Of a DNA stretch of 64,000 nucleotides, positions 14,536-49,484 are shown piece by piece. Below the pieces are notes generated by a model. The model was not told the origin of the DNA. It saw only the letters and a list, made by a program, of their open reading frames with translations, and did not search any database. Position 1 is the first letter of the stretch; each line of letters starts with the position of its first letter. The position numbers were made by a program, and so were the translations under genes. The DNA comes from Eledone cirrhosa (taxonomy: Eukaryota): positions 79,112,001 through 79,176,000 of the forward strand of contig OZ024745.1 in NCBI GenBank assembly GCA_964016885.1. Direction: 5' to 3'.

Positions 14536-14595
14536 CTAAAAGCCAGTGGAAGGAATAAACTCTGGAGCATTTGGATTTAGCCGACTGTTTGCAAT
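14536..14595 (-). CDS. PAIP2: PAIP2 last coding exon (PAM2 motif)
   Basis: ttttcag|IANSRLNPNAPEFIPSTGF*, matching the canonical PAM2 SxLNPNAxEFxP; phase 0. Confidence 0.93.
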   Translation of the reverse strand: MANSRLNPNAPEFIPSTGF

Positions 14596-16139
14596 CTGAA
14601 AATGAGGAAATAGAGTATAGTAAATGAAAAATACAAAAAAATATATAAAAAAAAACAAATCTAGAATACTACGTTTTTCCCCTCGTGCATACATATATTT
14701 GTGCTAGAATGGATTTTGTAAATGTGTATACCTATCTGTCGTGAATTTCCTAGATGTGACACTAAATATGTCGAACAGACTGTACTACCCATAGAGAAAG
14801 CCTAATGATACGTTAAACTACATTAGTAAACATTCTAATCATCCAGCCAGCATAACCAAACATCTCATTGAGACTTTCCTGTTTATCAGCTAATGAACAT
14901 ATCTTCACCAATCATTCTACATATTACAATGAAGCTCTAGTCTGGTGTGGATTTCTAGATAAGGCAGAACACAGTAAGTACAAGCAAAAACCTAAGAAAA
15001 ATAGATCCACATGCATTATACAGTATAAACATCATATAATATGGAAGTGGTCACACTAATACCTAAAGCCTTTCTTATTTTAATTGGGAAACATTTCGAC
15101 TTAGCACATAAATATCACAAGATTTTAATAGAAATACAGTTAAAATATACTATTCCACAACTCCCAATCTCGCACACATCACTGTGTCTAAGTTAGGAAA
15201 AATACCTAGCCATAGTAATATAAACAATCCTGAAGTTCTAGCTGCAATTCTATCAATAGGGACTACTGCCCTCTAGCCAGGAAATGCCTATCAAGAAGGA
15301 ATATGACTTCACTTTCAGCTTATATCCAAAATAAGTTACACTCAGAGATCTTAGCTAAAGTTAGATTCTATAACAGAAATAAAAGACCATGGGATCTTTG
15401 TGCTGCCAAAGCCCTGGAAATCCTTTACGCCAATGAACGAATCGTAAAAAATCTGAGGCAGTTTCAGTTTGTAAACAAACTGTATAAACATTTTTGTACT
15501 ATAGCCCATTATATCCTAATGGATAATATGGACACTATGCTGATGATATACATCATGATGTGGTAGCTAAGAGCAATCTAATTTTATAATCAATTCTGTG
15601 TGTGTGTGTGTGTGTGTGTAAACACTTTATTTGTATGTAGGTGTATGCACATGTATATACATATGAATATTGAATGGATATGTGTATATATGTATGTGTA
15701 CATTTATACACATACACAAACATACATGTGTATATATGTATATGTGAGTGTATAATTTTTATATACTATATCTTCGTTTACACATACTTATGTATGAGCC
15801 TAAATCTGAAAACATTATTAATGTTCTCATTATTATTATTACTTTTATTATTATTATTACTTTTACTATTATTAATACCTTTAGTATTTTTTCTACATCT
15901 ACAGATTAATTTTTCAGTTTCGGATTTTTTTTGCTTAAACATTTAATCTGTGCTAATAATATATATATCATCATCATCGTTTAACATCTATCTCCCACGC
16001 TAGCATGGGTTTAGACGGGAATTGTCCCATGTGAGGCAAAATTAGTCGTCTTGCTCGTATAGGACTGTCTGGCGGGTTTTCTACAGCTGGATGCCCTTCC
16101 TAACACCAACCACGCTTACAATATATTTTTTTTAGGAGA

Positions 16140-16680
16140 AGAATGTGGAAGTTGAAGGACCCTACAGCCAGTAACAAATTTAGAGGCATGCTTTTGACAG
16201 TAAGGAAGAGCAAATAGAGACATACAATATAAAGAAGCAGTGAGAATTCCTGCAAGATAATCTACTGATGGCCACAAATGAAATCTGTGGCTGGAGCAGA
16301 CCTCTAAGGAGAAGGAAAGTGACTTGATGGTGGAACAGTAGGGTGGAGGAGACAATCAAAGCCAAAAGGCAGGCTTGGAAAGAATAGCAGGATGGAAGAA
16401 ATAGAGAACACTACCAGGTGGCTAGGAGAGAAGCTAGGTAACAAGTGTACTTTGTAAGATAAAAAATTTAAGCATGTTCTGCAACTTGAAGACCAAAGAT
16501 GTGAGGTGTTGAGGATTGCAAGATAATGTGTCGCGGAAAATTGTGATATTATTGGGGAGAAGTGTGTCTGTGATGATAAAGGAGTACTTGCTCTGACTGA
16601 TACTAAGAAGGTAGCATGGAAGTGCCACTATCAAAGACTAGCAAATGTGGCGACTGAATAGAATAAAGTCAGTTTGCCAT
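16140..16680 (+). mobile_element. Decayed RTE-like LINE fragment
   Basis: Homologous to the reverse complement of 2600-2730 (e.g. GAGAAGTGTGTCTGTGATGATAAAGG). Confidence 0.6.
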
Positions 16681-16854
16681 GTCCATTGCAGGGTTAAATC
16701 CCCAGCTATCGCTGGTACTTGTTTTTAGCTAAGTATACTGAAGCAGCCTGAAATGAAGTGTTTTGCTCAAGAACAAAACACCCAACCCACATACTGCTAC
16801 TATACATATACATGTACATATTAATTAGAATATTTTTTACATAGAAAAATATAC

Positions 16855-16989
16855 CTGTTCTTTTGTGAGGGGTGTAGATAAATGAATGTCATTGAATCTT
16901 TCTGTTAGACAATTTTTTGATAACGAACTGCATTGCTGCCCTTCAGTTAACATTTCTTCATATGCTTCTTCCAAGCGATTCCATTCCAA
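16855..16989 (-). CDS. PAIP2: PAIP2 middle exon, variant B (45 aa)
   Basis: tttccag|LEWNRLEEAYEEMLTEGQQCSSLSKNCLTERFNDIHLSTPLTKEQ|gtat; 135 nt, phase 0-0. EEML and FND resemble vertebrate PAIP2. Confidence 0.85.
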
Positions 16990-17889
16990 CTGGAAATGAA
17001 ACAGGTTATGATTATTTAATAGCTATAGACAAAATATTTAAAACCAAAATTTTATTTCACCCTGTTTAGAGCTACTATTATGGTTAATTAGCCAGTCCTG
17101 ATCAGGCAGACCCATGATGAAAGGCTTTCAATCTCATCTTTTAATCAGGTATAGCTTATTACATTATTACATTATCCTATACGTCCTTCCCTTTGTTGGT
17201 ACTATGATGTGATTTAAAATTGATTTGCCTGCTGTTAAAAGCAGATTGAGCAACCACAGGCTCGATTACTAGGATGGTATAGGGAAATAACTGTCATAAT
17301 TGATCAAGCATCTGTCAAAATGACTTGCAGTGTTTAGTTATCTCAAAGTAGATTGAGTACCAGTAATATATTGTTCATGCCATTCTCTTTTTCTGTCAAG
17401 CCTGAAGGATCATCAAGCTGGTTTCCTCACTGTAAAGTCACAGAGTATAAAACTCTCTCTCTCTGAACAGGATGCCTGCCAACTGCATGGTTAACTTCCA
17501 GTTGTGTACTGGAGCAACCTGAAATGAAGTGTTTAGCTCAAGATCACGTGCCACCTGGTCCAGAACCTATTGTGATTGTAAGTTGCAAAACCATAACTAC
17601 TAGGGCATGCACCTTGACTGACTATACCATTCCTTAATAAATTTATAGCAATGTAAGCATTATTAAACTTAAAATTTCACAAACTCTGTTGTAACATTTC
17701 TACAGCTTTCTCATTTTCAAAGATTGCAGAACTGTCAGAATACCAACAAAATATTATACTATACTCAGATATAGAAAACAACTTGTCTTTTATAGAATTC
17801 TCAAGATGTAAGGATATTTTGATTGTTACTTTGGGGTATTCACAAAAAATTTAGCAATAATTTTATAGATGGATCAACAGGCATACCTT

Positions 17890-18248
17890 ATATACCAGTT
17901 GCTGGGCTGTGTGCTTTTTGTCGCGACACCTACATGACCACACTGTAAAGTGGTCATGTAGGCGTCATGACAAAAAGCACCCAGCCCACACTAAAGTGGT
18001 CATGTAAGTGTCGCGACAAAAATCTCCCAGTCCACCCTGTAAAGTGGTCGTGTAGGTGTCATGACAAAAAGCACCCAGCTAACACTTTAAATGTGGCTGG
18101 CATTAGGCAGGGCATCCAGCTGAAGAAACCAAGCCAGAAACAGTTCTGTATGAGCAAGACATGGTCACCTGACCCAAGTTGCCTTAAATGAGACAACCAT
18201 CTAACCTAATCTAAGGAGGAAAATAACCATTAAACGATGATGATGATA
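17890..18248. mobile_element. Family-B retroposon copy with internal tandem units
   Basis: Ends TTAAACGATGATGATGAT; contains repeated CACTGTAAAGTGGTCATGTAGG units. Confidence 0.7.
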
Positions 18249-19007
18249 ACATTTGTGCTATAAAGTAAATGACTAAATAACATTCAGACCTTATCTATCC
18301 ATAATTCTACAGCCAATAGAGGAAAATCAAAGTTTCCTCTGAACTTGCGAACAAAATAAATATAGAAGGGGCTGTCCTCTTTACAGCCATCAAAGTTGAC
18401 CACACTGAGATTGAAATAAATTATGTATTCTGTGCAAAAACTGGTGGTTGCTGCATTATACTTCTCTTATTTAGAACATTAAGGTGTTAATAATTTGGTA
18501 GCTTTTTATGATGTATATCAAGAGCAAATCTACACGAGTCTATATCTTTAACTACAGCTGAGTTTATAGATATGTGTAAGGAAAATTAAATTATTAAAAA
18601 AGTAATTAATAAGCAGTGTCATGGACTCAATTCACTGTCACTTGTTATTCATACCTAATAGAATAACTGGTACTAGATGAGCTAATGAAGGAGCTTCCAG
18701 TCAAATTTACATCAAACCACACCCTACACTCTTAAAAAAAGAAAAGACATTGGATAATGTAGTCCTAGATACATAAATGTCTGGAGATAACCACAGCTGG
18801 AACATCTTTCATCATAAATCTACTTAACTCGGATGGACCTGGAGTTAAACAACAACAACAACTGGTATCAGAGGATAGGAAGTATGGTAGGGCTTTTTAA
18901 AATTTCAAATCAAGATACTGAACTAAGAATTGATGAAAAAGACTCCCTAGTACTAGATTTAAAAAGGTCGCGGTAGGACTTGAGATTAGGATAAAAATAA
19001 AAATCAC

Positions 19008-19136
19008 CTGGTCTTCTGTGAGGGGAATAGGAGGTACCTCAGCCCCATTCAATTTTGATTTTAGCGGACAATTTCCTGATGAGAAAAGCCACCATTGTCC
19101 TTCCTTCAACATTTCTTCCAAGAACTCTTTTTCCAC
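19008..19136 (-). CDS. PAIP2: PAIP2 middle exon, variant A (43 aa), paralogous to 16855-16989
   Basis: ttttgatttag|VEKEFLEEMLKEGQWWLFSSGNCPLKSKLNGAEVPPIPLTEDQ|gtgatt; 129 nt, phase 0-0. Shares EEML.EGQ, NC and PLT..Q with variant B. Confidence 0.8.
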
Positions 19137-22100
19137 CTAAATCAAAAGATAAAACCACTGAAGTGTTCAAAACAAGAAAAGACGTTGCAACATCAAGGCT
19201 GGTCTTATGCCTTTTCTATCAAATTTTGAAGGAAAAAAAACATTGTCACAAGTCAAAATTTTCATAGAGGGAGAATATAATTGAAAAGCAAAATCAGTAA
19301 GATTTCAACTAAGCACTTGAAAAATATGAAAATAATATTTTATGATGTTTACTCCAACAACTGATTCTGCCACCCTATTACTCCGATATAAATAAAGGCA
19401 TGACTGTGAAGTTAATTTCACAACTATGTGGGTTTGAGTGTAATCTCACTGCACGACACCTTCACCAAGTGTCTTCTATAGTTTCAGGTCAACTGAAGTT
19501 TTATGAATGAATTTGATAGATAGAAACTATAAAGAAGCCCATCATTGTGTGTGTGAGAGAGAGCGGCATGCAGCTATATAACAAGTGGTGTAGTTTGTCT
19601 CAAGAAAGTCTTGTCCAACTAATGCCTGCAAAGAAAAGTCCAACGAAAACAATGAGGTAATAAAAATTGATATATTTTTATATTCTTATCAAAGTTTCTT
19701 TTGCCTTCAAATCTCCATTCTACAGAGAGAAAAAACTATTTCTTAACGACGATGATGATAATTTCAGCTAGTCAAAATCAACATCATTATCACCATTTTA
19801 CATCCCCTTTCCATGTTGGCATAGGTTAGAGCAACCAATCTTGCTCAATATATTCTATATTTGGTATGGTTTCTACAGCTGCATACCCCTCCTAATGCCA
19901 AGTACTTTACAGAGCATATTGGGTGCATTTAATTACACTACCACTTTACAGAGTGCACTGGATGCATTTAGTCATAGCCTCAAGACCATCCTTTTCCAGA
20001 GTGTACTAGGTGCATTATATTGTACCACTAGTACTAGAGAAGCGAGACTAACAGAATCCCCTCTACATCGTTTCCGTTTGAAAGCGAAACAATTTACAAT
20101 ATACAGGGTTCATTTTATCATGGCACCAACACTAGTGAGTTTGCCTTGAATTCTGTAAAATCTAAGGGGGTGCTCACTACCTAATGTCCTTGTTTAATCA
20201 AAAGAGCAACTAGGAAAGCATGACAAAAATACCAGGGTAAATAGAATAAAGTAAGAGAAAGAGAGAGAGAGACAATGAATTGGATGGTCTGGTCAAAGGG
20301 GATGTAACTAGTAAAAATTTTAAATACCCTTGCAATGAGAACTAACTTGTCCTTAGTTATACGAACATCACCTGTATATTCTGCTTGATCTCAGATCACT
20401 AGCATTTAGTCAACCCTTTCATTACCCTATTTCTAATGAATTATGCTACCTATGGTTTTCAAATCATTCTGAAAATAATAAAAATTTGGAGGGATTTAGT
20501 AATATAAGTAATTTTCTCATCAAGAACATAAGTTGGAAATGTTCTTACATAAAATTATGATGGCAGGTTTTTAGATAAATGATAACATGGCCTTGTGTAT
20601 CTGGTTAGAACGAATAGACCATGTTCCAGCGTATTGTAAGAAACAAATATGAATTGGTGTTAGGCTGTAAAACTGTTGCCGCAAAATGTCCTGCCCAACT
20701 CAGCATGAAACGTTGACGTAAAATTGATGATGACAATAAACACTTTAAAATAAACAGTTTTGTATTATAGGAACAGAATTAACTCTTTCAATACTAAACA
20801 CATGGTTTGGTACTGAAAAGGTAAAAACTCTTAGGATCTAAAACATAATTACAGTCAATCATTGCCATCAAGACATAACCAAACAGAAACATCTACATGG
20901 TTGCTTGACATGCTTGAAATAGCAACTAAACCTCCCTCAAAATCAGACCCTAAAACCTGAATAATTTTCCATTGTTTCCTTGGATCTAAAGGCATATCTG
21001 AAAAGTTCTGATATTAATATAAACTTTGATAACTTGCATACATATTTTTGTTGTTAGCCTTCAAATAATATCAATATCATAGTTTTGTGGTTGAACTTCT
21101 AAACTTTAATACAAAAAGGTAATGCAATGCAGGATTCTCTATACTTTAGCAATGAAGTTTCTGGCAACCCAAGAGAGTCAAATCTAAATCTTAGAAGCAA
21201 ACAGCACTGGTCTTATCATTTAACATCTATTTTCCCTGCTGGCAAGAATTGGTCACCTCAAACAAAAATAATTCTGTGATTCAAAAGAAATATAAAAATG
21301 TGAAAACAATATACGGCCATTAGGATGTATTCAAAAGTATAGTTTACTTGTATCAATAAAGTATGCACTGAATACAGTTCTGATAATTAAAGAGACATTT
21401 AGAAGATCTAGGTAACAATTTTGACATACTTTGTAGAGAAGCATAGCCTCAGTTATATGCTATGATTTTAATCTCTAAAAATATAGATAAGTTAGAGCTC
21501 CTCAATTGATTGAGAAAAGGTTTCGGAGGTTAAGGTTAGTAAAATATTTTGAAGATTTGCTATAACAATAGAGGGATATAAAACAAATCTGATACACACT
21601 GGGTGGAAAAAAATACATTTAGATCAATCAAAGAAGATTTTAAATGAATTTCAACTAGAAACTGATAATGTTGAATGTCATGAGATAATATAAAATCTTT
21701 ATACAATAAACTACAACCAAACTAGAAAAATAACAGCAAGTCCAATTCCAAACACTGATCTGTGCCTTCACTTCCAACATAGCAAAGGTGATGAAAAATA
21801 GTAGTAAATAACTACGTTATCATTCTGAGTATCGTTCACTTCTCAACAACCACTGAGTTTTATGTTAAGCTAAATCTACTGGATATTAGTTATCTTACAT
21901 CAGGCACCAGTCATTTCTCTTTCTGACGAATTTCAATAAAAATAATGTTGTCCTTGAAACATAACTGGCATGACCATCTAGCCAAGATAATCACTTATAC
22001 GTGACATCAAATGCATTTCTTGGACTAAAAGTTTGTTTTCTGGCCACTAACTGGCAAGCATCAACATCCAGAGTATTGTCAGTTTCAAGTTCAATTATAG

Positions 22101-22445
22101 ACAAATTGATTAAAGCTGCACTATGCTCATAAAGACAATTCTTTGGTTCAGTCCAGTTTACTTTAAGGATCAAGAATGCACAGTAAATCACCAAGTACCT
22201 TGTTAACATACAGTACCAAATTCAAATCCTGTGAATCTAAAGGAAATAAAAGCTTCAGTAGTTTCACTAATGGCCCATTTCGAAGATCTAGGACCTGGCT
22301 CTAAACATAGTCCATCTCATGTTAAATTCAACATGCAGAAATATTCAGTTATCTGAGTTGAGTTGGAAGAACTTTCCAACAATAAGAATGCAATAATTAT
22401 TTTTAACCTCCATACATAAAATTAGAAAATAAAAAAGCACTTTAC

Positions 22446-22556
22446 CTGCCGATCAAAATTCTCTACACCTTCCTCTCCCATCCACATATATTCCGAAAAA
22501 TCAACTTCTGATTTCTCAGGTTCAACTTCCATTTTAATTTTATTTGGATACTTCAT
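22446..22556 (-). CDS. PAIP2: PAIP2 first coding exon
   Basis: Acceptor cttgttag at 22563; ATG at 22556; MKYPNKIKMEVEPEKSEVDFSEYMWMGEEGVENFDRQ|gtaaa. Matches the PAIP2 hallmark F.EYMWM...F.RQ. Confidence 0.93.
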
Positions 22557-23529
22557 ATCTACCTAACAAGAAATATGAAAAAGAAAACAGAAGTCAGAAT
22601 ATCTTTTAACACAGAAACAATAAGGAGATTAAGAAAAACAAAATATTATATTCAAGATTAATTAAAACTGCTTCCACTTAATCCTGTGACATTTAATATC
22701 CATGAATTAGCTATATGGCATTACACAATTGAATTATGAAGTATGCTATTTATATTGAGGTTATATCTGTAACACAGTACCTGCTATAAACATTTTGAAA
22801 AAAAATGAATTTCTTACATGCATGTTAAATATTCAGGAAAAATCCACTAATGTTAAATTGAATATAACTTCATTATGAACAATTTTGGTATATGTATAGC
22901 TACTTTTCAAGCTTGACAATGTCAGGTATACTACTAGTATACAAATATAATTTAAAATCTTTTTCCCAGAAAACTCGCCACTATAAACTATACCTTAACT
23001 ATAAACAAGCCTAAATGGGAGCCTCTGCATAGTCAATCAATCTGCTAGAAATAGCTAATTTTCTCAAACTGTTCATTATTACATTCCTAAATAAAAACAC
23101 TGCTTATGTTTAAAATGATTTTGAAAATAATCAAGAAGTTGGAGGGATTTAGTAATATAAGTTTCTCAATATTCAGCTAGTATTTTGAACATAAAGGATC
23201 ACACATAAAATTATGATAGAATATTTTTAAATAAATATAAACGTTTTAAAATATAGTTTTGTATCATAGAATCAGAGGTAGGGCACACAAACATGTGGCT
23301 AAATTACAGTCTGTGTAATTACATCAGAGAGAGTGTGTGTGAACAATAAAAAATATTCCATCATCACTACCCCAATGGTATACGAGCCCAGATGGAGTGG
23401 GAGAACACTCCAGGCGCAAGCCACTTCGTGGACAGAATGAAGAAAACGTTAGAGGGGACACATTGAAATAACCATTGACTAAAAAAAAAGGGGGGGCACA
23501 CAATGTACCTGGTGTACATATAAAATAAG

Positions 23530-30550: not shown

Positions 30551-31959
30551 AACAATGATTAATATTTGAAGCAGGTATATATATAGGATATCTAAACATT
30601 ATAAACAGGATATTAGGGGTATTATATTAATGCCTTTCCCCGAGGGCATTAGTTATTCAAGTTGGTGTTTCTTTTAGTAGTTGGAAAAATTGGAGATTAT
30701 TGATGGAGAAAGGGAGTTCGTGATTTTTTTTTTTTTTCTAAAGACATGACTTTTTCGTGTTTTTCAAATAGATATTCAATGTTTTTTGTTTTTTTTTATT
30801 CAATGGTTGTTAGCTTATTTTGTTGGGATATTGAAATTCTTCGTTAAAAAAATTAACCTGCAAACAGCTTTTAGGTTTTGTATGCAAAACTTAAGGATTA
30901 CCAACGAATGTGACAATAGTAATTAAAAAAAAAAAGAAGCCAACTCCTTATATAGAAATATTTGCTACTGATAGAAAACGGAGTCGTATTATACTCGCAC
31001 CAAATGTTACCACTTTCGGGCCCCAAAATTACAAATAAAACAATATATTTTAAAGCCTAAAAATGAAATGGAGTAGGATTATTTTTGTAACATTTCATTA
31101 TTTCTTGTTTATTTTTTAATCATTCCATTAATTAAACAGAATTTTTTAACTATTAGATTTAAAATTTTTATTTTTATTATTTTTTTAAAGAAAGAATAAA
31201 GAATGCGGTGCTTCGCATGTGTAAACATTTACTACTCTTCAATGATGGTGCACATTTCTGCTAATCAAAACCCTAGTTAAAAACAAACGAATTCAAAGCA
31301 TACTATAAGCAAGAGGGGGAAACAAATATACTGCGAATTCAATGTTTTGTTTAAGTTAGTATCAAGAGTTTATGCTATATTTATTCCTACAATGTATTTA
31401 AAATGTGTGTTGGTCAGATTCATGCTTATGGGTATGCATGCAGAGTATAATATATATACATTATACACCTACATTATATATATATATATAAGCTTACAAA
31501 TGCTACACACACCCGATATAAAATAAATAAATAGATATCTTGAGAGTGTTGGTAGTGGTTGGCTTTATGTCCCGAAAGTAGTAGTAACATTTGCTGCAAG
31601 TAAATTACAACCATCTTTCACCAAGAGATAAATATTTCGGTCTAAAGATTCGTTGGTCATACCATTTAAAATCCAACCAGTAATTCTCACCTTAGCATTC
31701 TATTTTCTAAGGTTATCGTTGAGCAGTTTTGTATATGCTTTAGACTGTATGGAATAATAATATTAGAGTCGAAACAGCTAGTATAAGAGGTTAAAGTTAT
31801 GCAAGATGAAGAGAGTAATAAACAAGGGTTTGATTTAAAAGCTTACCGACATACGGAGCTGGTGAATTGAACACTTCTGTTACTGGTCTGGTTGTCTAGA
31901 GTGTTAATGGTGCTTAGACTGTGGTGATACTACCGTGGTAATGATTAAGGAGGAGCTAG

Positions 31960-33169: not shown

Positions 33170-33843
33170 GTTCTTAAGTTGCCACTTACTGTCTGCTAGC
33201 ATCAAATACTCAGAAGACTGGGTCGATGTCCTACCCATGGCTAACATCGGTGGCCTACTCAGGTTGGATGAGCTTCGTGTAAGGGTCTGAAATGTTGGTG
33301 TGGTAGGCTCCTCGACTACTCAGGCATTCAATGGTCTATCTTGCCGTCTGAATGCCGTTCGCTTCGCGCGTCACACTGAGCTAAACCTCATTATTAAGAG
33401 AGCTTTGGCCTGGGCAAACATCCCTTCAATTTTGGAACCGTCTGGGTTGTCCAGAATTGATGGGAAAAGGCCTGACGGTCTTACCCTGTGCCCCTGGATA
33501 CGAAGCAGGTGTCTTATCTGGGACGTCACAGTTAGTGACTCTTTTGCTTCTTCCCACATCCTGGATGCTGCAGATAGGGCGAGAGCTACAGCTTCTTGTA
33601 GCCGAACAGAACAAAATTCTGAAATACCAAGATCTGTCAGTTAACTACCTTTTCCAGCCTGTGGCGTTCGAGACGTTTGGGGGAGTTGGGCCGCTAACTG
33701 CGAGGTTCTTGTCATCACTGGAGGCTCGCCTAACCGAGGTAACTGGTGATGCTCGTGAAGGTGCTTGGTTGTTCCAGTGCATCAGCCTCGCCATCATCCA
33801 ATGTAATGGCGCAAGTATGTTGACTGGCCTAAAAAATTATTAG
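33170..33843 (+). mobile_element. 3' end of a non-LTR retrotransposon with a restriction-like endonuclease (CRE-like)
   Basis: LSC...RH..LN.IIKRAL...EP.GL...DGKRPDG....W.....WDVT, then across one frameshift KY..L...Y.FQPVAFETFG...FQ.IS.AI...N. Confidence 0.85.
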
Positions 33844-40469: not shown

Positions 40470-41850
40470 TCCTGAGAGGGCCGTGGGGGCAGTCTTCAAA
40501 CATTCTTTCCAGCAGGTCCTGTCAGAAGCAACCGTCTCTAACTGATCCAGCTGGATCCCCAAGCTAGACTAGCCAAGTTCTTGAATGTTATCCAACCATC
40601 TTGCTCGGGGTCTACCCCTGGGTCTCTTTCTGGTTGGTTTTGCCAATACAATCTGTCCAGTGATTCATTCCCGAGACATTCTAACCACATGTCTTTAGTA
40701 TCGGAGCTGTGATCTCTCAATTCGGAGAAGTAGTGACTCTGATCTCCAAGCTATGCACTTTAACGAGTAACATTACACCAAAGACTCTCTGGAGGAATCC
40801 TATTTCAGCTGCTTGTATTTGCAGTAGTATTCTTTCGGTCATTACCCAAGATTCATGACCATAGTTAAGGGTTGGCATGAAAACCGAATTGAAGACAGCG
40901 AGTTTGGCTTTTACACCTACCACCCTTCTGATTACTGACTGCTGGAGCAGGCGCATTACTGCATCAGCTTTTGCAATTCTTGCACTTAATTCAGCCTCCT
41001 GCCTTCCATTACTCATGAACACAGTCCCGAAATACTTGAACATCTCTACCTGCTTCAGATATAGTCGGGGTTTCCTCAACAATGTTCCATGGCTCTGATA
41101 CTGTAGATTTGAATGGATGATGGAAACTACACTCTTCAGGTGTGGCACTAGAAATGACTGCACAGGCGGGAGTGGAGATACTCAAGCCTCCAGCTGTCAG
41201 AATGTGTTTTGGACTGGATCCTGTTAGGAGGGAGGATTTGCTTCATGAAGCTTAGGCTTCTGTGGGTTTTGCAAGTTTATGCACCTAACAAGGAGTACGA
41301 ATACAGGTTTCTCCTTGATGAAGTCACTGCAGTTAAGACTATATCCTGATGGGAGATTTCAATACACGGTACTGACAACCTGACATGGAAAGGAGTAATT
41401 GGAAAGAATGGCGACCCCGATCTAAATACGAATGGAGAGGCCCTACTAGACTTCTGTTCTAGTAATGGACTCTATTATGAATATCTTCTTCCAGCACAAT
41501 GACATCCATAAATATACATGGTATAAGGGGAATCGGGGACAGATCAATAATTGATTTTGTTATTGTCTCTGATCTCTTTGATTCTGTGCTGGATGTTCAG
41601 TTCGTGTTAAGAGAGGGGGTTGAGCTGTCAACTTATCGCCATCTAGTTACTTGCAACTACCTAAAGCCACAGAAGTCTACAAATCTAGCAGGTCCATTGC
41701 GACCTACAGGATAAAGTGGGAAACATTGGTGGATAAGAGATCAGGACCAGATATGCAGATACTATTGCATCAAAATTCAGGGAACTCCCTGAAGAAAGGC
41801 ATCCAGTGAAATATTTGGGAGGACCTTTCAAATGTGTCAAAGACATAACC
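40470..41850. mobile_element. RTE LINE with inverted 5' part: RT C-terminus on minus (40470-41150), AP endonuclease on plus (41150-41850)
   Basis: Minus: QVEMFKYFG...PTLNYGHESW...QAAEIGFL. Plus: VYAP, MGDFN, NG..LLDFC..NGL and SIIDFVIVS. Confidence 0.8.
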
Positions 41851-46150: not shown

Positions 46151-47230
46151 TTCAGTCGAAGAGAGGTAGTCACGGTTCTGGGACAGCTTTCCTCACCATA
46201 TGAGATGTCATCTGGTGTACCTCAGGGATCTGTTCTTGGCCCCTTTTTGTTTGTGGCATATATTAATGACATAGATGCCAACTTAAGGAATGCCACAGTA
46301 CTAAAGTACGCAGACGACATCAAGCTGTACCTTGAGATAAAAAGGACAGATCCTGAACACTATAGATCTTGCTTGCAGTCTGACCTGGACACAATGCAAC
46401 AGTGGATCTCAGACTGGCAACTCAAGCTAGCTGTGGACAAGTGCACCACCATGCATTTTGGGAGTAAAAACCCAGCGTCCACATACTCCCTCCACAGCAC
46501 TAATATCAAGAAGTCTTCCTGTGAACGTGACCTGGGCATTACGGTCAGCAGCGATTTGCGTTGGACGAGGCACGTCTCTAAAATTGTCAAGAGGGCCGAG
46601 GGTGTCTTAGCATCACTCAGCAAGACCTTTGTCAGCCGCTCTCCAGATATCTATTTAAGGCTGTATACAGCTATGGTGCGACCACACTTAGAATTTGCAT
46701 CACCAGTCTGGAACCCCTATCTTGCTCAGGACATTGACCGCCTGGAAACTGTTCAGAGACGTGCAACCAAGCGAATACCCTCCATCAGGCATCTACCATA
46801 CTCTGAGCGCCTTGCTTCCCTGGGCATGGATTCATTGAAGCTCCGACGCCTGGCAACTGACTTGGTAAACACCCACAAAATTGTTAACCATGTTGCCAAC
46901 AACAACCCTGAGTACCTTTTCGATTTCCATGTGTCTAACACACGTGGACATGCCCACAAAGTAAGAAAACAGCACAGTTCCCATGACTTTCGGAAACATT
47001 TTTTCACGCTCAGAGTTGCTGAAGCATGGAACAAACTACCTGCATCAGTTGTTAGCTGTCGAGACACTGCATTCTTTAAGGCCTCCATGCTTCCCGAGAT
47101 CCGCCAACAGAACAGCTAACACATACACACATGTACTTCCCTGACATTTGTGTATTATTCTATGTACTATATTGACGAGTTGTAGTGCACCTGAGCACTT
47201 TACACAATAATTTCATTATTATTATTATTA
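46151..47230 (+). mobile_element. Young 5'-truncated CR1-clade LINE (intact RT C-terminal ORF, 3'UTR, (ATT)n tail)
   Basis: Uninterrupted ORF SGVPQGSVLGP..YADD..ERDLG..RPHLEFA..WNP..FF..RV...WN.LP with stop at 47119; tail ATTATTATT. Confidence 0.95.
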
Positions 47231-48745: not shown

Positions 48746-49401
48746 GATTTCTTTATTAGCCACAAGGGCGCAACAAGAAAGGGGACAATACAAAGACATG
48801 CCGGGGATTTTACATACAGTCGTGTAAAAAATATAAAAACAAACAATTTCAACAATCGAAATCCCCAATAGGGGGGAGGCGCCACAAATGGGTTGTTTAA
48901 TACCCCGTCGATAGAACAACCCTCAACTCGAGGAGCGTGTTGTGCAAGTGCTCCTTTCTTCCTTTTGCTCTCTTCCTCAACCTACAGGCTTATAAACAGA
49001 GAAGGCCCAATCACTCGGGCCATTTTCGCTTCATTCACCCACCTTTCAGTAAATTTACTGGGGTGCAGTGCCTCTCTCTCCACCCTGATTCTCCTTCTAA
49101 AGTGATACTTAAAGAAGGGAATCAATTGTTGTCCGGAGAGAAAGGCATCTGTCCTCAGTCCTCTCAACCTCGTCCACCATATAACTTCTTTCACCATAGC
49201 CACCGTACAGAGGAAAACCGCCTCTCTTTCGTTTTTGAAAGAGTCTGGCGGTTTGATCCTTACTATGGACTCGGCAGTCAACTGTATTTGTCCCATACGC
49301 AACAGCAGTTGTTCTGCATAGTTCCACAGGTCGGTTACGCCTGGGCAGTGTACAATTGCGTGCAGAACTGTTTCAATGTCCTGCGCACATCTTGGACACG
49401 T
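48746..49401 (-). mobile_element. 5'-truncated L1/Tx1-like LINE 3' end with a 15-bp TSD
   Basis: Zinc knuckle CPRC....ETVLHAIVHC, W..R and F..RW motifs; 3' AATAAAGAAAT; TSD CCGGTTCTTAAGATA at 48731-48745 and 49402-49416. Confidence 0.88.
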
Positions 49402-49484
49402 CCGGTTCTTAAGATAAGTAGTGGGACAGGACTCAATGAAATTGTCTTCACTATTCACCTCTCCTAGTTTTATATGAAACCATT

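Follow-up and report, generated by a model that had tools for sequence, protein, structure and literature searches.

Complementary losses can keep both copies of a duplicated gene, a course termed duplication-degeneration-complementation or subfunctionalisation. Tandemly duplicated homologous exons that substitute for one another or undergo mutually exclusive splicing are described in the available portions of PMC9741552 and PMC9013439, and the main text of the former, as far as it is accessible, does not mention PAIP2. In the PAIP2/PAIP2B family itself, the acidic PAM1 region contacts RRM2-3 of PABPC1 and PAM2 contacts MLLE. Residues 26-83 of human Paip2A bind RRM2-3 in two steps (PMC9019252, available text). 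PAM2 is required for PAIP2 binding in cells, and mammalian PAIP2 has been linked to synaptic plasticity and spermatogenesis (bioRxiv 10.1101/2021.02.07.430161, accessible part). Given these mammalian roles, splice control specific to octopuses could matter for cephalopod RNA regulation.

The window, that is the whole 64-kb stretch of Eledone cirrhosa DNA analysed here, carries a small gene on its minus strand that the first-pass annotation had called PAIP2, and this identity was upheld by a Pfam PAM2 match and by named orthologues. The gene resembles the PAIP2/PAIP2B family in the order of its elements, its intact PAM2, its intact DFSEYMWM..FDRQ and its presence as a single gene in the genome. 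It differs in that the second half of the octopod PAM1 is spread over two duplicated exons, designated A and B, and is less acidic and partly optional. As in the exon substitution systems (PMC9741552, PMC9013439, available portions), the copies point to tandem exon duplication and both are frame-preserving and conserved, but the octopod copies are not swapped; the models show A or A+B. Each copy has lost different parts, so the two are complementary, not alternative. Such complementary loss is likewise the mark of duplication-degeneration-complementation, but here it acts on motifs in two exons of one transcript, and one copy can be skipped. The locus may thus be a small natural example of subfunctionalisation in which two exons within a single gene share out the functions; it also dissects PAM1 into separable halves, NMR having mapped the complex of this region with the RRMs. 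The surprise is limited, because automated annotations already contain the isoforms and exons are commonly duplicated in tandem. The searchable literature, to which most subscription papers and bioRxiv supplements do not belong, gave no description of the octopod PAIP2 duplication or its splicing, and four supplements of PMC9699675 held no entry for PAIP2 or the locus.

The gene consists of exon 2, exon A, exon B and the last exon, separated by introns of 3309, 2018 and 2259 nt, with GT-AG boundaries and phase 0 at every junction. A probable first exon lies upstream. The coding features are listed below (a slash marks a splice junction).

31847..31852, minus strand: 3' end of the probable first exon (ATG TCG/gtaagc), which would supply an in-frame ATG further upstream
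22446..22562, minus strand: exon 2, N-terminal part of PAM1 (DFSEYMWM...FDRQ), with a second ATG at 22556
19008..19136, minus strand: exon A, the duplicate with core columns 1-9 and the Trp patch, from which nine core residues and the NES-like motif are gone; present in 8/8 octopod models
16855..16989, minus strand: exon B, the duplicate with core columns 10-18 and the NES-like motif, without columns 1-5 and the Trp patch; a cassette in relatives' models
14536..14595, minus strand: last exon, coding portion with the PAM2 motif and TAG; same sequence as the C-terminus of Octopus proteins matching PF07145

The earlier claim of two open phase 0-0 exons on the minus strand with good splice sites was borne out in coordinates and translations, both exons being GT-AG in the contexts tttgatttag/GTGGAA...GACCAG/gtgatt for A and catttccag/TTGGAA...GAACAG/gtatat for B. 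The isoform lengths of 99, 101 and 144 aa were also correct when counted from the ATG at 22556; with the four residues of the upstream exon they become 103, 105 and 148 aa, as in the relatives' models. Across this presumed junction the first exon and exon 2 would read M-S-V-D-M-K-Y, and the relatives have MSVGMKY, MSANMKY and MSSANMKY. Exon 2, which bears the N-terminal PAM1 signature, is identical to that of other octopods at 30-33 of 37 residues. The C-terminal PAM2 motif was matched by PF07145 above the cut-off in three orthologues, and the PAM2 peptide 1jgn_B was matched weakly (E 1.5).

A scan of the whole interval 14596-22445 for open, frame-preserving yAG..GT segments with a pyrimidine tract and a good donor found no third, canonical middle exon in the introns. 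Its four candidates were A, a shorter A of 99 nt, B, and an 87-nt segment unrelated by sequence. The shorter A would arise from a possible internal donor at 19038 (minus strand, GAG/GTACCT), giving a frame-preserving form without the last 10 codons. The open 87-nt stretch (16324-16410, minus strand, in the intron after B) has acceptor-like and donor-like ends, does not resemble PAIP2, is missing from the models of relatives and is probably due to chance. Fast first-look searches of the genome with exon 2, exon B and the full decapod-type protein revealed a single locus and no second or processed PAIP2 copy. In contigs from three DNA-like runs of one sample, both exons were covered at single-copy depth with no differences, a coverage that is not independent because the sample may be the source of the assembly. 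No Rfam match was found in the window.

Sequence comparison indicates that A and B are almost certainly tandem exon duplicates. They share 82 of 123 aligned nucleotides and score 96, whereas 685 control windows from the 13-24 kb region, both exons excluded, average 23 and reach 48 at most, and their proteins have 17 of 40 aligned residues in common (z 6.7). The proposed tandem duplication of a middle exon inside the PAM1-bearing region is confirmed by this score, and both copies are conserved. In the 150 nt on either side there is no clear continuation of the similarity (upstream 42 vs 39 +/- 8.5, downstream 53 vs 40 +/- 8.5). Over 38 hand-aligned codons, dS was about 0.50, dN about 0.45 and dN/dS about 0.9. 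Within Argonauta the similarity of A to B was not significant (z 1.1).

A and B are neighbouring homologous exons, each about as long as one ancestral exon, and Sepia and the other outgroups are single-copy. A single segment of 51 residues is present in the Sepia pharaonis cluster and in two decapod-like records that share 84% and 92% identity with it. The E. cirrhosa copies each align along this segment, A with z 5.5-5.6 and B with z 5.5-7.3; the A copies of other species align more weakly (z 2.8-4.8), and the best shuffle equalled or beat the real score in 4 of 12 A-to-decapod comparisons. The pair of 43 and 45 residues, set against 51 residues, indicates duplication and not intron gain. One block alone was seen in Patella, Littorina, Gigantopelta, Crassostrea, Tubulanus and a Ridgeia-linked record (names were looked up for 10 of the 17 other representatives), and no second such block was found among the retrieved mollusc, annelid-linked and nemertean representatives. 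A and B have traits in common that the decapod segment lacks (a tail proline), which makes it probable that the exon was already changing before the doubling. In the mirid bugs Apolygus lucorum and Lygus hesperus (P0026, P0045), PAIP2 was noticed to have independently duplicated the N-terminal half of PAM1 internally, giving two DFSE.MWM..EEFD units.

Exon B is kept in three other octopods and is 84-87% identical to that of Octopus and 75% to that of Argonauta; the corresponding values for exon A are 64% and 79%. Compared with Octopus, B is about as conserved as exon 2 (89%) and more so than A. Across the four octopods, 16 of the first 19 residues of A and 13 of 17 residues in a stretch at the end of B are invariant, and the latter stretch includes the sequence LTERFNDIHL discussed below.

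The first-pass annotation had regarded A and B as giving two versions of one region, but the copies are not interchangeable versions of it: each kept different parts of the ancestral exon. A core profile was made from 17 outgroups, leaving out P0026 (internal duplication), P0027 (fragment) and P0034 (insertion). E. cirrhosa A scored 21.2 bits over columns 1-9 and -13.2 bits over columns 10-18, and B scored -1.6 bits over columns 6-9 and 14.0 bits over columns 10-18. Exon A retains columns 1-9, after which nine residues are missing between a pair of short internal repeats, and the core of exon B begins at column 6 and retains columns 10-18. The core is followed by Trp in 8/17 outgroups, and the aromatic Trp patch is, as had been noted, kept in A alone and gone from B. 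It is very probable, judging from these profiles, that the copies retained complementary parts of the ancestral exon. Independently, MAFFT placed A+B on the outgroups as a full PAIP2 interrupted by one 38-column insert; in the same alignment A-only is a deletion form.

The best 23-column core window reached 15 bits in the three A+B proteins scored and stayed below 0 in the three A-only proteins scored. The corresponding leave-one-out score was 57-75 bits in 10 of the 17 outgroups, and against these values the 15 bits of A+B suggest a weakened PAM1 in all isoforms. Octopods have no contiguous acidic block of the VEEELWEE.FIEACFEEML type behind FDRQ, theirs being split and weakened. Acidic residues number 16-17 in the ancestral segment, 8-10 in A and 8-9 in B, and basic residues number 7-8 in A plus B vs 1 in the ancestral segment; the acidic sum is kept, but the many basic residues make PAM1 look weakened in A+B as well. 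Among the 30 residues that follow FDRQ, octopods have 6-7 acidic and 3-4 basic ones, and the 17 outgroups have 8-13 and 0-2. The tail of exon 2 fits the first five core columns badly (-13.6 bits vs -3.4 to +2.9 for the tail of A). An HMM of the outgroup middle segment, which is too weak for this purpose, gave no match under E 0.25 for A or B, and no PAM1 structure was found in the PDB by sequence.

Octopod gene models (n=8) were gathered by searches with B, A and the full orthologue and by cluster look-ups, covering every member of three octopod clusters; all are automated models. Exon A was present in all eight. Four hold both exons (Octopus bimaculoides X1 and X2, O. sinensis X1, Argonauta hians), four hold A alone (O. 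bimaculoides X3, O. sinensis X2, two of O. vulgaris), and none holds B alone. For O. vulgaris, A-only models are the sole ones on record. An index-free search of 1.84 billion representatives yielded 20 proteins, of which the two from octopods were one A+B and one A-only form. In these models B behaves as a cassette, being included in O. bimaculoides X1 and X2 but skipped in X3, and included in O. sinensis X1 but skipped in X2. The Argonauta model may be homology-guided, because its name is borrowed from O. sinensis. For alternative forms, the O. vulgaris genome paper relied on Iso-Seq together with PASA (PMC10700109, available text), and we assume that the A-only accessions stem from that annotation.

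Strict mutual exclusion, the splicing mode first proposed, is contradicted by four A+B models and no B-only model among eight, a distribution that fits A as constant and B as optional. In all likelihood, A and B are not strictly mutually exclusive. Of the features that enforce exclusion, a very short intron, a U2/U12 clash and a frameshift on joint inclusion are all absent at this locus, the A-B intron being 2018 nt long and joint inclusion being in frame without a stop. On the basis of the relatives' automated models, exon A is likely always included and exon B likely an optional cassette in E. cirrhosa.

The account that we favour, and hold to be probable, is that the middle exon was duplicated into complementary copies, of which A is likely constant and B likely optional, and that B would restore the second half of PAM1 together with a predicted signal for export by CRM1. 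At 144/148 aa, the A+B protein would be the full repressor, with all ancestral elements in order around a 38-residue insert, and would be exported from the nucleus. The A-only protein (99/103 aa) would dock on PABP through PAM2 and bind the RRMs more weakly, as the mapping of human Paip2A binding to residues 26-83 and the dependence on PAM2 suggest. It might also stay in the nucleus, because it is of about 12 kDa and has no export motif. Skipping of B would likely remove half of the PABP-binding helix and a conserved predicted NES, and B would likely be a cassette that tunes PABP binding and nuclear exclusion. That the inclusion of B is a regulated switch is a tentative proposal.

The export part of this account depends on a motif in exon B and on its decayed counterpart in exon A.

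16879..16908, minus strand: NES-like motif LTERFNDIHL, class 1a (hydrophobic-x3-x2-x1), with conserved spacing
19035..19064, minus strand: decayed counterpart in exon A, LKSKLNGAEV, with Ala at the third hydrophobic position and prolines behind; register set by eye from the A/B alignment

The class 1a pattern, which was chosen after B had been inspected, is carried between PAM1 and PAM2 by 13 of 19 outgroup linkers (P0027 excluded) against 1.0 expected, and in 11 of these 13 a match lies 10-15 residues before PAM2. When the decapods are reduced to one, the count is 11 of 17 outgroups (mean 0.96 and maximum 5 in 1000 shuffles), and five other NES spacings occur in 0-4 of the 17. The spacing is present in exon B of 4/4 octopods and in exon A of 0/4, and no NES of any class was found in the two A-only proteins scanned. 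The B motif resembles class 1a leucine-rich NESs in its spacing, its acidic neighbours and its lack of internal proline or tryptophan (PMC3442415, available portion). PAIP2 resembles hosts of class 1a NESs in being disordered (human Paip2A, PMC9019252, available text); the motif itself is a predicted one. According to the accessible text of PMC3442415, true NESs prefer class 1a spacing, yet consensus matches are often false.

In the available supplements of PMC4764573, the main text of which does not mention PAIP, human PAIP2 is a category A1 CRM1 cargo with a RanGTP stimulation of 1500 and an enrichment of 190. PABPC1 is a cargo B (110, 29), and PAIP1, another PABP binder, shows no CRM1 enrichment (1). 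Xenopus Paip2b is a cargo B with a log10 nucleus-to-cytoplasm ratio of -1.06, which corresponds to a nuclear depletion of about 11-fold. In the CRM1-bound fraction, PABPC1 exceeds PAIP2 about 70 times in abundance, and because of this excess PAIP2 could piggyback. The odds that LTERFNDIHL is a working NES are slightly below even. No mapped PAIP2 NES was found in the literature by title or abstract opening, where most subscription papers are not searchable. A candidate export signal for the whole PAIP2 family would explain why the 14-kDa protein is excluded from the nuclei of oocytes and would be relevant to the reported nuclear role of Paip2 in Drosophila (PMC8623629, accessible part). A broader proposal is that the family has a widely conserved CRM1 signal between PAM1 and PAM2, that octopods placed it with half of the RRM-binding helix on one cassette, and that regulated skipping turns the sole PAIP2, otherwise a cytoplasmic repressor that strips PABP, into a weak PAM2 adaptor that enters the nucleus; as a whole, this is rather unlikely. 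CRM1 repeat 3 (PF18787) had a single match in the genome, at C2:368249439-368249537, in an exon of the exportin-1 gene with a frame of 42 aa.

The same splicing could hold with the B motif serving not as an export signal but as a short helix for another partner, such as a turnover factor or a further PABP surface, a reading that we consider unlikely. Hydrophobic spacing of this kind also marks amphipathic binding helices, 6 of the 17 outgroups are without the strict pattern, and the capture of PAIP2 by CRM1 could be indirect. However, class 1a is the one spacing enriched and is that preferred by true NESs (PMC3442415, available portion), CRM1 enrichment is 190 for PAIP2 vs 29 for PABPC1 and 1 for PAIP1, and human residues 89-110 are unperturbed by RRM1-4 (PMC9019252, available text).

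It is less probable still that there is no switch, the copies having decayed neutrally until both were needed, with A+B as the sole working protein and A-only as tolerated skipping. The A-only form does miss elements conserved across invertebrates, and the dN/dS of about 0.9 between A and B fits relaxed divergence after duplication. Against this, A-only models come from three Octopus species and, for O. vulgaris, have no A+B counterpart, and the first part of A is nearly invariant in four octopods (16 of 19 residues).

Mutually exclusive exons, or a B-only isoform in E. cirrhosa, perhaps steered by competing pairing of three inverted repeats that loop out A or B, are very improbable: A and B are alike in length, equal in phase and clearly homologous, but the models and the A-B intron oppose exclusion as set out above, and B, without the first five core residues, would find a poor substitute in the exon 2 tail. 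The repeats in question are as follows.

19867..19961, no strand assigned: high-copy interspersed repeat, upstream copy, in the exon 2-A intron; inverted relative to the A-B copy
18015..18250, no strand assigned: high-copy interspersed repeat, middle copy, in the A-B intron; able to pair with the upstream or the downstream copy
15966..16113, no strand assigned: high-copy interspersed repeat, downstream copy, in the intron between B and the last exon; inverted relative to the middle copy

The predicted pairing of the middle copy was -171 kcal/mol with the upstream copy and -173 kcal/mol with the downstream copy, against about -78 kcal/mol for shuffles. The layout is like the competing structures linked to mutually exclusive exons (PMC9013439, available portion), but 7 of 80 control layouts from 40 genomic stretches also reached it (2 of 40 when non-overlapping). 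Competing inverted repeats were dropped as an exclusion mechanism, the layout being within chance.

Several further observations concern repeats in the window. The repeat at 17903-18250 contains a 39-nt hairpin and three tandem units of 46-48 nt, and its summed contig depth was about 100,000 times that of its flanks; about nine related copies lie inside the window. The inverted repeat pairs in the PAIP2 introns would be candidate substrates for A-to-I editing. Open frames at 46151-47119 (plus strand), 33291-33843 (plus strand), 40717-41181 (minus strand) and 48982-49482 (minus strand) resemble what we take to be reverse-transcriptase fragments of non-LTR retrotransposons. The segment 24600-26300 (minus strand), in the first intron, gives the impression of a decayed coding region of a DNA transposon.
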